DNA from: an uncultured virus (IMG/VR IMGVR_UViG_3300047476_001538)
Lineage: Duplodnaviria; Heunggongvirae; Uroviricota; Caudoviricetes
IMG/VR virus record: IMGVR_UViG_3300047476_001538
Location: 1-64,000 of that record
Length of the DNA: 64,000 bases
Reading direction: 5' to 3' (one strand)
Each line of letters begins with the position of its first letter. Within the stretch, counting starts at the first letter, position 1. Shown here in pieces: positions 49,622 through 64,000 of this stretch. Below the pieces are notes generated by a model. That model was given only the letters and a program-made list of their open reading frames with translations. It did no database searches and was not told the origin of the DNA. The position numbers were made by a program, and so were the translations under genes.

Positions 49622-49701
49622 CTATCAAAAAGTATACTGTCTACTGGCGTATGAGACAACACTGCTCATAATAAAGGTCCAAACAGTATACTTTTTGATA
49701 G
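49622..49701. repeat. Perfect 19-bp inverted repeat enclosing a 42-nt structured loop
   Basis: CTATCAAAAAGTATACTGT / ACAGTATACTTTTTGATAG; inner TATGAG/CTCATA hairpin. Confidence 0.85.
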
Positions 49702-49727
49702 ACGAGAAAGGATTTGAATTAAACAAT

Positions 49728-50050
49728 GGTTGTATATCTTTCAAAGTGAAGGCATTGCGGACGGCGGTTCGATCCCGCCCATTTCCAAAAATTTCTCTTC
49801 AAGATCATTCGACTGAGTGATCTTGTGGGGAATGACATGGTTTCGACGTGGTGAGATAGTGGAGAAGGCAACCCGAGAGATGTCTGACGTAATCAGCATA
49901 AACATTATAGATGCTAAATCTACAAAAACTTCTGGAACTGTTACTGTATCTGGTAAGGGCATGAAATTTTCTGCTCGCACCGCTGTACGTGGAGTTGCGC
50001 TAGCCTAAGAAACTGGCACCAGCGGAGTTGATCACTCTGTTACAAGAACG
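49728..50050 (+). ncRNA. ssrA: Circularly permuted (two-piece) tmRNA
   Basis: T-arm GGCGG-TTCGATC-CCGCC + CATTTCC-A (ends 49787) precedes GGGAATG-ACATGGTTTCGAC (starts 49828); acceptor stem has G3.U70; tag frame 49913-50008. Confidence 0.9.
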
Positions 50051-50053
50051 ATT

Positions 50054-50083
50054 AAGAAAGCCCCTTTATTGGGGCTTTTCTTT
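50054..50083 (+). terminator. Intrinsic terminator after tmRNA
   Basis: AAAGCCCC-tttatt-GGGGCTTT TCTTT. Confidence 0.85.
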
Positions 50084-50145
50084 GCTTGACATTCAGCAAA
50101 CATTGTGTTATCATATATTTTTTAATTACGCTTTAGGAGGATCAT

Positions 50146-61323: not shown

Positions 61324-61863
61324 ATGAGAGCAAAGGAACTGTTTGAAAAGTTGAATCATTACAACGACGGCACAAGAACTTTGTTTGAAAGCATTGCTGT
61401 ACCAGAAGTCAATCAAGCTCTTATAGATTGGAACAAACATCAACACAACGGAGTGTTGATAGGCGGTTGTGCTCTTAGCTTTTACGTCAGACCAAGGACT
61501 ACAATGGACGTTGATGTTCTTTTTTTAACAGACGATTCGATACCAAAAGAAGTCAGTGGTTTTAAAAGAACAAGACCTTCTGCATTTCAACATAACAAAA
61601 CACATGTTGGGATTGAACTCGTCACTTCACTGTTGATAGGAATATCACAAGAATTAACTCAAAAAGTTTTTGATACTGCGATGATCTCCGACAATGTTAA
61701 AATCGCAAGTCCATCCGCTCTTGTTGCATTGAAGCTACATAGATTTAATCGCCAAGATCAAGCTGACATAGAAGAATTGATGAATCATTATACCATCGAT
61801 TTACAAGATTGGCCACTGTCCGAAAAGGCCAAGGCGCATTACGAAAAAGTACTGACTTGGTAA
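61324..61863 (+). CDS. AbiEii/DUF6036-like nucleotidyltransferase with internal-protein leader
   Basis: MRAKELFE leader; LIGGCA...PRTT.DVD, LKL...R.QD.ADI. Confidence 0.75.
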   Translation: MRAKELFEKLNHYNDGTRTLFESIAVPEVNQALIDWNKHQHNGVLIGGCALSFYVRPRTTMDVDVLFLTDDSIPKEVSGFKRTRPSAFQHNKTHVGIELVTSLLIGISQELTQKVFDTAMISDNVKIASPSALVALKLHRFNRQDQADIEELMNHYTIDLQDWPLSEKAKAHYEKVLTW

Positions 61864-61939
61864 TAAATATCAACAAAATCATAACTAACGAAACAAAAGA
61901 CAAATCGTACATTTATGAAAATTATTCTGAGTTTGTGAA

Positions 61940-62539
61940 ATGAAAATTTCAGAAATAATTACCAATCCGCCCAGAGATGAATATATTGATCAATATCAGT
62001 ATCATTTTTCCGATTGCCCAACCGTTGCTACCATTAAAAATTTACAGCTAAAAAAATGCGAATCACAGGATGAAATTGAATATGGTCTGATTGATTCCAA
62101 GGACCATATAGTAGGCTATTTTTCATTAGATCGGTACGATGACGACATTTGGTCAGTTAATTTAGTTCAATTAGCACAGGCATACAAAGGAATGGGATAT
62201 GGAACATTCTTTTATGATTATGCTATCATGAACGATAAGCTAAAAATTTTATCGGATGCAACAAACACTGAAGGACAATTTGGCTCAAGAGCATTATGGG
62301 AAAGGCTAAAAAATAATCGTCGCTACGAGATAGTAGGATATGATACAAACACTGATTCAGTCATTCCTAATGCCACTTCTGAAATGATTCATAATAATAA
62401 ACCAAATACAAGATGGTTAGCCATTCCTCCATCAGAGACCATAAACGAATCAATTCAACGAATTCAGTCTCACATGAAAAAGAGATATGTGGTGTGGTAT
62501 GGTCCAGGTACCACATCTGAGACCTATTTTAATTACTGA
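61940..62539 (+). CDS. GNAT-fold protein with internal-protein leader
   Basis: MKISEII leader; YKGMGYG..FY, LSD...T.G...LW; ATAAATA at 61863. Confidence 0.65.
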   Translation: MKISEIITNPPRDEYIDQYQYHFSDCPTVATIKNLQLKKCESQDEIEYGLIDSKDHIVGYFSLDRYDDDIWSVNLVQLAQAYKGMGYGTFFYDYAIMNDKLKILSDATNTEGQFGSRALWERLKNNRRYEIVGYDTNTDSVIPNATSEMIHNNKPNTRWLAIPPSETINESIQRIQSHMKKRYVVWYGPGTTSETYFNY

Positions 62540-62610
62540 CGCCCGATAAATATGAGTAATCGAAGAGGAAAAATTATACTGGTTGATTTGTTGATGATAA
62601 ATAATCAATA

Positions 62611-62684
62611 CGGCCTTGACGAGATTCGAACTCGTAACCTTCCCATTAGTCAAGCAGGCGCTCTGTCCATTGAGCTACAAGGCC
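62611..62684 (-). tRNA. Atypical tRNA (Arg-like body, degenerate anticodon arm, nominal GAC)
   Basis: GGCCTTG/CAAGGCC acceptor, GCTC/GAGC D-stem, ACGAG-TTCGAAT-CTCGT T-arm; weak CCTGC/ATGGG stem; no CCA; own TTGACT-N17-TAATAT promoter. Confidence 0.75.
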
Positions 62685-62767
62685 GTGTCTATATTACACG
62701 ATTATCATCAGGCAGTCAAGGTAAATTTTTATGGCAGTCTTCGGCGTAGATAAATAAGATTTATAAT

Positions 62768-62842
62768 GCCTCTATAGTTTAACGGGAAAAACAAGGGATT
62801 TGTAACCCCTAGTTCCCGGGTCAGTTCCGGGTGGGGGCTCCA
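62768..62842 (+). tRNA. tRNA-Thr(TGT), non-canonical T-loop
   Basis: GCCTCTA/TGGGGGC, anticodon loop TT-TGT-AA, CCCGG-GTCAGTT-CCGGG, T-CCA. Confidence 0.85.
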
Positions 62843-62847
62843 TTTAA

Positions 62848-62876
62848 GAAAAAGCGCATTTATTGCGCTTTTTTGT
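62848..62876 (+). terminator. Intrinsic terminator
   Basis: AAAAAGCGCA-ttta-TTGCGCTTTTTT. Confidence 0.8.
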
Positions 62877-62990
62877 TGTCACTTAAAAAGGTGATAAATA
62901 AATGTAGGTAATCAGATACACCACATATCCGAAACCGGTCTGGAGGACAACGGCTGTCCCTACGACATTATTTATTATCTGGAGGAATCA

Positions 62991-63653
62991 ATGGCAATAA
63001 TTGCTCTATATGTAAAAACTCATAGAAAAACAGGATTGAAGTATCTTGGTAAAACAACATCCGCTGATCCTTGTGTGTACAAAGGATCAGGCACTCGTTG
63101 GACTCGTCATCTGAACAAACACGGTGATGATGTTGACACGGAAATAATTCGCTGGTGTACTCCAGATTCTATCAAATATTGGGGTATATACTTCTCCAAT
63201 CTGTGGAATGTTGTAGAAGACGATAACTGGGCTAATCTTAGACCGGAAATAGGCGACGGTGGTTTTGGACCAGAACCAGGAGAGAAAGGAAGAGCCACTC
63301 AAAAAATATTGAGAGAAACCGACTCTGAATGGGTTGAGGAATGTAGTAAAGCAATATCATTGGGTGTGCAAAGATTCTACGAGGAGGGAGGAGTAGGATC
63401 ATTCACTGGCAAAAAGCACGATATCAACTACTACAACAAACTAAAAATAACTCATCAAAATAACAAGCATCAACAAGGAGAAAAAAATTCACAGCATGGT
63501 ACAAGATGGATAAATAATAGTGGATACAACACGAAGTGGAGTATTGACAATTCAATACCACTCGGTTGGATGGCAGGTAGAATAATGAAACTACCATCGT
63601 TGCCAAAAGATGAAAAACAAAAATTATTGAGTCAGTTTATAGTAGATAAATAA
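62991..63653 (+). CDS. GIY-YIG (Seg-like) homing endonuclease within tRNA cluster
   Basis: LYVKTH..TGLKYLGKT, YKGSG..W, WANL..E.GDGG; NUMOD-like GSFTGKKH and GEKNSQ.GT.WI. Confidence 0.85.
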   Translation: MAIIALYVKTHRKTGLKYLGKTTSADPCVYKGSGTRWTRHLNKHGDDVDTEIIRWCTPDSIKYWGIYFSNLWNVVEDDNWANLRPEIGDGGFGPEPGEKGRATQKILRETDSEWVEECSKAISLGVQRFYEEGGVGSFTGKKHDINYYNKLKITHQNNKHQQGEKNSQHGTRWINNSGYNTKWSIDNSIPLGWMAGRIMKLPSLPKDEKQKLLSQFIVDK

Positions 63654-63666
63654 AATAACAGTTTAT

Positions 63667-63750
63667 TCCGAGATGACGAAACGGTAGCCGTAGTTGACTG
63701 TTAATCAACCGCCGAAAGGCTTGCAGGTTCAAGTCCTGCTCTCGGAGCCA
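63667..63750 (+). tRNA. tRNA-Asn(GTT) with long variable arm
   Basis: TCCGAGA/TCTCGGA, GTTGA-CT-GTT-AA-TCAAC, V-arm GCC-GAAA-GGC, GCAGG-TTCAAGT-CCTGC, G-CCA. Confidence 0.88.
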
Positions 63751-63762
63751 CATTAAAAATAC

Positions 63763-63790
63763 AAAGCCTCAACATTGGGGCTTTTATTTT
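63763..63790 (+). terminator. Intrinsic terminator
   Basis: AAAGCCTCAA-ca-TTGGGGCTTTT. Confidence 0.75.
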
Positions 63791-63850
63791 GTCTCCTATA
63801 TTTCATCTATTGACATTTATGCCACGGTATGATATGATGTATCTGTAGTT

Positions 63851-63939
63851 GGGGTGGTGGCGGAATTGGTAGACGCGCTTGATTGCCAATTAAGTGGCTC
63901 TTGTATGTCGTAAAGGTTCGAATCCCTTTCACTCCACCA
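63851..63939 (+). tRNA. Class II-type tRNA with Gly anticodon (GCC) on a Leu/Ala-like body
   Basis: GGGGTGG/TCACTCC, GCG-GAATTGGTAGA-CGC D-arm, CTTGA-TT-GCC-AA-TTAAG, ~17-nt variable region, A-CCA. Confidence 0.85.
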
Positions 63940-64000
63940 ACTACACCTAAATTTCAATGATTGGCATATTTTGATAAATACAAATTACAAGAGCCGCTTG

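Follow-up and report, generated by a model that had tools for sequence, protein, structure and literature searches.

A phage-encoded tRNA with a leucine-type body, an alanine-type acceptor end and the glycine anticodon GCC as a candidate missense decoder of GGC and GGU codons

The DNA analysed here (the window, 64,000 nucleotides) is the first 64 kb of one 75,771-bp viral contig, the IMG/VR record IMGVR_UViG_3300047476_001538 of an uncultured member of the Caudoviricetes, and near its end lies a tRNA gene with anticodon GCC whose parts point to different amino acids. The contig has a G+C content of 37.7% and a CheckV completeness of about 21%, which leaves about 79% of the phage genome unseen. 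Among its products is a T4-type family B DNA polymerase, and jumbo phages, with 42-48% amino-acid identity, are the nearest named relatives. Over the whole contig ARAGORN calls four tRNAs and one transfer-messenger RNA (tmRNA). The GCC tRNA gene is real, is transcribed separately from its own promoter and is found in a second sample. By the published identity rules, the best-supported reading is that its product would not be a normal glycine acceptor, and possibly accepts alanine or leucine instead.

Membership in the tRNA family is indicated by both tools, since the Rfam model RF00005 matches with 48.6 bits against a gathering threshold of 29 (E 6e-9 in a 1.6-kb region and 2.4e-7 in the whole window) and ARAGORN draws a cloverleaf; moreover, no open reading frame (ORF) of at least 60 aa overlaps the gene. 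The acceptor stem consists of the seven pairs G1-C72, G2-C71, G3.U70 (63853/63933), G4-C69, U5-A68, G6-C67 and G7.U66, and the terminal CCA is encoded at 63937-63939. The anticodon stem CTTGA/TTAAG has five pairs including one G.U, the last base of the variable region is U48 (63911), the partner of A15, and the universal tertiary nucleotides U8, A14, G18G19, U33, T54-T55-C56 and A58 are all kept. The original prediction, made from the letters of the window, had described a GCC anticodon in a clean 7-nt loop, a leucine-type D arm, a long variable region, and the elements A73, G2-C71 and G3.U70, and every one of these is found (Table 1), the variable region being 17 nt long with a stem of only 3 bp. 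A shifted or enlarged anticodon loop that would expose a leucine anticodon was also considered and rejected, as no other 5-bp stem yields a 7-nt loop.

Table 1. Features of the GCC tRNA gene and its surroundings; positions are those of the window unless the contig is named
Feature	Position	Strand	Remarks
Class II tRNA gene, Leu-type body, Ala-type acceptor top, anticodon GCC, encoded CCA	63851-63939	+	89 nt; tRNA-Gly(gcc) by ARAGORN; Rfam
Acceptor 5' strand GGGGTGG	63851-63857	+	pairs with TCACTCC
D arm GCG/GAATTGGTAGA/CGC, Leu type	63860-63876	+	3-bp stem, 11-nt loop; A14, A15, G18G19
Anticodon loop UUGCCAA (TTGCCAA)	63883-63889	+	anticodon GCC at 63885-63887
Variable region, 17 nt	63895-63911	+	3-bp stem (G-C, G.U, C-G), 8-nt loop; ARAGORN drawing
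T arm AAAGG/TTCGAAT/CCCTT	63912-63928	+	A51.C63 mismatch, two A-U pairs
Acceptor 3' strand TCACTCC	63929-63935	+	U70 at 63933; discriminator A73 at 63936
5' leader TGTAGTT	63844-63850	+	complementary to 3' trailer
A76 and trailer ACTACA	63939-63945	+	complementary to leader
Sigma-70-type promoter TTGACA-17-TATGAT, TG extension	63810-63838	+	11/12 consensus matches; about 12 nt upstream of mature 5' end
Intrinsic terminator closing the tRNA-Asn unit	63763-63784	+	9-pair stem, then T run
Class II tRNA-Asn(GUU), 84 nt	63667-63750	+	ARAGORN, Rfam
tRNA-Thr(UGU)	62768-62842	+	ARAGORN
tRNA-Val(GAC)	62610-62685	-	ARAGORN
Permuted two-piece tmRNA, beta-proteobacterial type	49698-50099	+	RF04321 110 bits, RF01850 102 bits
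DUF6036/AbiEii-like nucleotidyltransferase	61324-61863		weak family match
GNAT	61940-62539		weak match
Accessory island stretches	61324-62539, 62991-63653; contig 65735-67488, 72468-73757		

The surroundings of the gene are those of a small independent unit. The promoter in front of it is the best of eight sites in 62400-64000, and as it follows the terminator that closes the tRNA-Asn unit, the GCC tRNA therefore forms a separate transcription unit with a strong promoter of its own. The next terminator, at contig 64119-64144 and about 180 nt past the GCC tRNA, is nearly identical to the upstream one and is again followed by a TTGACA promoter. The original prediction had further proposed that the flanks of the gene can form an alternative stem with a possible influence on maturation, and the complementary stretches TGTAGTTGG (63844-63852) and CCAACTACA (63937-63945) are indeed present and pair in the predicted precursor fold. 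Two further observations concern this part of the contig. A cassette made of a AAGCCTCAACATYGGGGCTTTTATTTTG-type terminator and then a TTGACA-17-TAYRAT promoter is repeated between small transcription units (window 63763-63838; contig 64119-64193 and 64608-64762). Between the GCC tRNA and its terminator, a T-arm-like hairpin TGGAT-GCGTTCAA-ATCCA extends from window 63998-64000 to about contig 64025; it may be a tRNA remnant, and an Rfam search of this hairpin region gave no match.

In a second, independent freshwater sample from another study (run X3), a 4069-nt contig shows no difference from 63049-64000, and because of this identical DNA the GCC tRNA is not a sequencing error. A one-off mutation of a leucine tRNA, which had been named together with a sequencing error as what would undo the proposal, is also unlikely, as GCC is at least two substitutions away from every leucine anticodon (NAG, YAA). 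In two other runs (X4 and X5), the summed depth is high over 63826-63927 with loose ends at 63825/63852, which gives a weak hint that the same tRNA body stands there behind a different upstream sequence, the match beginning at about 63852.

The tRNA body is derived from a leucine tRNA. Its positions 6-29 (24 nt) are 100% identical to an annotated tRNA-Leu and are matched in 5426 of 5426 E. coli genomes. When 111 nt were compared by BLAST with 50,697 phage records, 329 records were matched, only one of which covers at least 80% of the query, and ARAGORN reads that one as Leu(UAG); among the 40 matches listed, 23 lie on annotated tRNA-Leu genes, two on Ser, two on Gln and none on Gly, and the best full-length phage matches are Leu(TAG), Leu(CAG) and Leu(GAG). 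The pattern scans of viral DNA covered the 2.9 million viral contigs of IMG/VR, and a scan with the first 26 nt found one locus there, a tRNA-Leu(UAA) that is the closest body found. Its acceptor GGGGUGG/UCACCCU has G1.U72 and G3-C70, so that the acceptor 3' strand of the GCC tRNA differs from it in two bases, C72 and U70, each of which gives rise to an alanine determinant; with this one comparator, the direction of the changes towards the alanine set is suggestive. Taken at the sequence level, the GCC tRNA is thus a descendant of a phage tRNA-Leu. Between its loop UUGCCAA and CUCAAAA, the loop of a tRNA-Leu(CAA) (locus L219), there are four changes. The D-loop motif GGAATTGGTAGAC is in itself not specific for leucine in phages, for it is carried by 9 His and 10 Gln class I tRNAs among 82 pattern hits.

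As for the amino acid that such a molecule would accept, the bacterial identity determinants have been tabulated by Giegé and Eriani 2023 (PMC9976931), and the reasoning on glycine, alanine and leucine in the original prediction agrees with that table. For alanyl-tRNA synthetase (AlaRS), it lists A73, G2-C71, G3.U70, G4-C69 and G20, and the GCC tRNA has all four of the acceptor elements, while its anticodon is not of the alanine form NGC. For leucyl-tRNA synthetase (LeuRS), it lists A73, A15-U48, G18G19 and A20a with no use of the anticodon, and these are all present, the D arm being that of E. coli letter for letter; the anticodon is not one of leucine (NAG or YAA, with A35). For glycyl-tRNA synthetase (GlyRS), it lists U73, G1-C72, C2-G71, G3-C70, C35 and C36. 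G1-C72, C35 and C36 are found in the GCC tRNA, but U73, C2-G71 and G3-C70, three of the four acceptor elements, are absent, and where a class I body with a variable loop of 4-5 nt is expected of tRNA-Gly, there are the 17 nt of Table 1. According to the same review, G3.U70 transplanted into tRNA-Tyr led to dual charging with Ala and Tyr, and the D-aminoacyl-tRNA deacylase (DTD) of bacteria strips glycine from tRNA-Ala by way of G3.U70, from which U73 shields tRNA-Gly (PMC9976931).

Because the full alanine acceptor set and the leucine set are present and three of the four glycine acceptor determinants are absent, we propose, with a probability of about 0.4, that the GCC tRNA is a decoder of GGC and GGU (together GGY) charged with alanine and/or leucine. 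More specifically, AlaRS and/or LeuRS of a proteobacterial host, two enzymes that do not read the anticodon, would charge it and a GlyRS that depends on U73 would pass it over, while DTD, whose targets are tRNAs with G3.U70 but no U73, would strip off any glycine attached to it. During translation, GGC and GGU would then be read with alanine or leucine, which would make the GCC tRNA a natural missense decoder. A benefit can be suggested by way of speculation: if a tRNA-targeting defence or toxin disables the tRNA-Gly of the host, such a tRNA might keep the ribosomes moving at GGY codons. To this extent, the original prediction of Ala or Leu at GGC and GGU is the reading that the identity rules support best.

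A different outcome, which we think rather unlikely, is that the GCC tRNA truly serves as a glycine tRNA, charged by the GlyRS of the host or by one encoded in the unseen part of the phage genome, and that it supplements the decoding of GGY. Ordinary tRNA-Gly(GCC)-like genes have exactly its loop UUGCCAA, GlyRS relies strongly on C35 and C36, which here stand beside G1-C72, and GGT is the commonest glycine codon of the phage (467 of 1236), as expected under codon supplementation. Moreover, the odd scaffold might go unrecognised by toxins or nucleases directed at the normal body of tRNA-Gly, for example by TacT, which owes its specificity to U73 and G71 (PMC9976931). Yet the glycine elements U73, C2-G71 and G3-C70 are exactly those that are lacking; glycine acceptance falls when U73 is mutated, in vitro and to a greater degree in vivo, and G3.U70 with A73 would turn any Gly-tRNA of this form into a substrate of DTD (PMC9976931).

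The neighbouring class II tRNA-Asn(GUU) bears on this question from both sides. It carries U1-A72, C2-G71, C3-G70 and G73, and G73 with the anticodon makes up the published Asn set (PMC9976931). Its acceptor end therefore matches its anticodon, and the phage lineage can fit a long-arm body with a cognate acceptor end, which shows that class II bodies can hold a cognate class I identity in this phage and so speaks for glycine. By contrast, while the Asn tRNA has the G73 it requires, the acceptor end of the GCC tRNA does not match Gly, as its discriminator is A73 and is joined to the alanine set. The GUU tRNA is conserved in seven Brevundimonas jumbo phages, with 87% column identity and compensatory changes in all stems. 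It also occurs in other viral contigs, the loci recorded for it besides the window being L127 (6009-6092), L260 and L236, and an RNA-library contig (X13) spans 63538-63749, stopping one base short of its 3' end.

Several points weigh against decoding of GGY with alanine or leucine. Firstly, the identity rules from which the putative charging and decoding are deduced were established in E. coli and a handful of further species, which may differ from the phage host. The permuted tmRNA of beta-proteobacterial type and the sigma-70-like promoters together suggest a proteobacterial host, with a hint of a betaproteobacterial one in freshwater, and because of this inferred host the E. coli-type rules are a reasonable guide. 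Secondly, the minor alanine determinant G20 is absent, a U following G18G19 in the D loop; a second G.U stands at 7:66 in the acceptor stem, and G3.U70 itself could be a chance wobble. Thirdly, with the A.C mismatch and two A-U pairs in the T stem and a variable stem of only 3 bp, EF-Tu or the ribosome may accept the tRNA poorly; the single-sequence minimum free energy fold is not a cloverleaf either and does no better than shuffles (z -1.22), a measure that is uninformative for tRNAs. Fourthly, GGT together with GGC (303) makes up 770 of the 1236 glycine codons (62%), or about 3.7% of all codons in 88 phage ORFs. As GGY is so common in the genes of the phage, missense decoding would therefore damage its own proteins, and the deliberate sabotage of the host that the original prediction had entertained finds no support in this usage. 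Fifthly, an aminoacyl-tRNA synthetase of the phage could lie in the unseen part of its genome; in the contig itself (about 21% of that genome), the synthetase that had been suggested as a possible partner is not found, the four Pfam families PF00133, PF01411, PF00587 and PF02091 giving no match. A metatranscriptome was also consulted and contains no RNA contig over 63851-63939, which is uninformative either way. Finally, no close orthologue was found that would show conservation of G3.U70, A73 or GCC. In the relatives reached through the DNA polymerase (two loci), the sequences stop short of the tRNA region; a relative reached through the TnpB gene has no tRNAs, and two contigs that share the upstream 549-aa gene have none within 10 kb. 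The tRNA cluster therefore sits in a variable island.

Such a position, together with the weak variable stem, the T-stem mismatch and three G.U pairs in all, would also be expected if the gene were a duplicated phage tRNA-Leu, neutral or in decay, that had drifted without a selected function and had little activity. The Leu(UAA) relative is the only near body that the scans of the viral contigs found, and other tRNAs of the cluster are irregular too, for example tRNA-Val(GAC) with U37 and G73. However, a decaying copy would hardly be expected to have a near-consensus promoter of its own, to retain all universal tertiary nucleotides and to encode CCA, and its loop fits the optimal glycine loop at seven of seven positions, which is four changes from the CUCAAAA loop and at least two substitutions from any leucine anticodon. 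The identical DNA of the second sample and, as a weak hint, the two runs that match from about 63852 point in the same direction, as does the covariation in analogous genes elsewhere that is described below. Decay without function is on these grounds quite improbable.

The T-arm region is also where a role outside translation finds its ground, namely that of a tRNA-like RNA serving as a decoy, sponge or substrate of a tRNA-targeting system, or as a regulator that uses its GCC loop. Phage tRNAs are said to counter tRNA-targeting defences. The base pairs of the T-stem region contact EF-Tu, and weak binding of EF-Tu, to which A51.C63 and the A-U pairs point, would keep the RNA off the ribosome. 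The systems addressed could be anticodon nucleases, nucleotidyltransferases of the AbiEii/MenT type with a preference for class II tRNAs, or GNAT or Doc toxins, and in the accessory island there are an AbiEii-like nucleotidyltransferase, a weak GNAT match, a Doc-family toxin and TnpB. For AbiEii, a 2026 preprint reports a likely preference for class II tRNAs (10.64898/2026.01.19.700257), and in other genomes there are elements, of a Lachnospiraceae prophage and of Chitinophagaceae, that keep the GCC loop and the leucine core without a chargeable end. On the other hand, the end of the phage tRNA is a chargeable one, with seven clean pairs in the acceptor stem, A73 and CCA encoded in the gene, and the neighbouring enzymes are weak family matches, for which adjacency alone is poor evidence. 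We also know of no defence system that targets tRNA-Gly(GCC) by its loop alone, and a non-translational role is accordingly judged unlikely.

Some further features of the same island are worth recording. Around the tRNAs, it also holds an HNH/Seg-like endonuclease, the TnpB being of the IS605 OrfB kind, and an S-adenosylhomocysteine hydrolase. The tRNA-Val(GAC), whose G73 is that of the Rfam alignment, has beside U37 a mismatch at the base of the anticodon stem and does not fit valine identity; ARAGORN draws it instead with an 8-bp acceptor stem.

Beyond the window, the combination of a leucine-type body and a foreign anticodon was followed by scans for a leucine-type D loop and then the loop UUGCCAA over viral, metagenome and genome contigs, in which class II tRNA(GCC) genes were found at 3 of 41, 18 of 30 and 5 of 14 loci, respectively. 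The three tRNA-like viral loci all belong to another lineage and no close orthologue is among the 41; hence, of the homologues in other phages that the original prediction had asked after, similar leucine-bodied tRNAs do recur while a near counterpart was not found. Besides the sequence of the window, the three collections contain 15 distinct class II tRNA(GCC) sequences. Some of them have a clean acceptor stem with A73, namely those of Gemmatimonadota, of one Chitinophagaceae metagenome-assembled genome and of one locus beside a terminase-like gene. In others, those of a Lachnospiraceae prophage and of Chitinophagaceae elements adjacent to an integrase, the acceptor is mismatched, CCA is missing and a terminator follows directly, though the leucine-type D arm, the UUGCCAA loop, the long arm and a good T arm are kept, and judging from their sequences, these elements may be non-chargeable tRNA-like RNAs. 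They comprise eleven loci of Butyribacter or gut prophage and, beside an integrase in Chitinophagaceae, L133, which equals L161; the 5' strand GAGCGT is common to both lineages. Ordinary short tRNA-Gly(GCC)-like genes with the same UUGCCAA loop coexist in four of the five bacterial genomes checked. Gene conversion from the genome's own tRNA-Gly was considered and rejected, as at locus L167 the anticodon stem differs from that of the ordinary tRNA-Gly of the same genome.

A search for such genes was also made in Gemmatimonadota, where 60 of 151 genomes were matched and 30 loci with 34 tRNA genes were examined. While 21 of the 34 are ordinary class II leucine tRNAs, 10 genes at nine loci have a leucine body and A73 with a non-leucine anticodon, namely GCC, GUC (three), CAC, CUC, GCG, GGC, CGC and GAC. 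Three related loci are known besides these nine; the members of this family are 85-88 nt long, and several have C33 in place of U33. Five of the 35 loci compared for synteny show a ruvB-queA locus, which corresponds to four distinct places, and close relatives carry there GCC (three) or GUC (one) with the rest of the tRNA nearly invariant. In an alignment of 15 leucine-bodied tRNAs with non-leucine anticodons, that of the window included, 96.9% of the cells pair, and 20 of the 24 pairs change on both sides. None of 500 shuffles reaches these values, slid controls pair at 32-45%, and among the helices the anticodon stem varies most. Leucine-bodied tRNAs with non-leucine anticodons are thus structurally constrained.

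Viral DNA holds further cases. With the D-loop motif and a base other than A at position 35, at least 115 stretches were found, of which 80 loci with 82 pattern hits are listed. Ten of these 82 hits are of class II length with class I or unassigned anticodons, among them Thr(UGU) and Asp(GUC) with A73, and Asn and His with their cognate discriminators, whereas 53 have no ARAGORN call, many of them resembling, by eye, intron-split tRNA-Leu genes. Many viral tRNA-Leu genes, six of the loci being examples, contain insertions that range from tens to hundreds of bases and stand in the anticodon loop or immediately behind it; these insertions are likely introns, and ARAGORN hence misses the genes. 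There is also a class II phage tRNA of 92-93 nt, recurrent at five loci, with U1-A72, G73 and CCA encoded in the gene, whose irregular anticodon loop is left without an assignment by ARAGORN.

If the GCC tRNA is charged with alanine or leucine, a sense codon would be missense-decoded by a natural tRNA of viral origin, which would bear on the extent to which phages manipulate the fidelity of translation and on whether tRNA-targeting defences can be bypassed by tRNAs that insert a wrong amino acid. Such a tRNA would also give code engineering a natural scaffold that is independent of the anticodon. If it is charged with glycine instead, GlyRS would tolerate a class II body without U73 and the glycine identity rules would have to be revised.

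As regards known systems, searches of the full-text literature, paper supplements not included, gave no description of leucine-bodied tRNAs of 7/5 geometry with class I anticodons in phages or bacteria, which does not prove that there is none; by analogy, the closest known precedent is that of the nev-tRNAs. These are class II tRNAs of nematodes, derived from leucine tRNAs, with the anticodons of Gly(CCC) or Ile(UAU), of which nev-tRNA-Gly is charged only with leucine and decodes GGG as leucine in vitro; their anticodon varies between species, and the survey covered 44 eukaryote species and two further nematode genomes, with no bacteria or phages (Hamashima et al. 2012, PMC3333845). Like them, the GCC tRNA is a leucine-derived class II tRNA with a class I anticodon. 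It has the structural traits by which they are recognised, that is a 7-bp acceptor stem, a D stem of 3-4 bp, anticodon and T stems of 5 bp, 7-nt loops, a long variable arm and an anticodon belonging to neither Leu nor Ser, with one A.C mismatch in the T stem. Unlike them, as they are eukaryotic, nematode-specific by definition and use CCC for glycine, it is encoded by a phage behind a bacterial promoter, and it has a G3.U70 and alanine set of a kind not reported for nev-tRNAs. That leucine-bodied tRNAs with exchanged anticodons also exist in Gemmatimonadota and in other phages suggests that the phenomenon reaches beyond nematodes. A more far-reaching idea would make the GCC tRNA a member of a widespread and so far undescribed prokaryotic counterpart of the nev-tRNAs, with swapped class I anticodon arms and a deliberate role as missense decoders, that of the phage serving to rescue stalled ribosomes by putting alanine or leucine at GGY codons once the tRNA-Gly of the host is disabled; we consider it doubtful.

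The bacterial allo-tRNAs, reportedly of serine identity, share with the GCC tRNA the long arm and an anticodon at odds with the identity of the acceptor, but differ in that it has the canonical 7/5 geometry, A73 and a leucine-type D arm. They have acceptor/T geometries of 8/4 or 9/3 and mismatched anticodons (Mukai et al. 2017, PMC5389517; PMC7609411), were found in a search for selenocysteine tRNAs and could, as their authors propose, be missense or nonsense suppressors or regulatory RNAs (PMC5389517). In comparison with the canonical tRNAs, the GCC tRNA is like tRNA-Leu in its identical positions 6-29, A73, long variable region, A15-U48 and G18G19, and unlike it, with its A35 and usual C2-G71, in having G2-C71, G3.U70 and a weaker variable stem. 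With tRNA-Gly(GCC), it shares the identical loop UUGCCAA and G1-C72, though not U73, C2-G71 and G3-C70, and it differs from it by the long variable region and the leucine-type D arm. With tRNA-Ala, it has in common G1-C72, G2-C71, G3.U70, G4-C69 and A73, and it differs from it in the class II body and the missing G20, while its anticodon GCC is only one base, at position 35, away from the alanine anticodon GGC.

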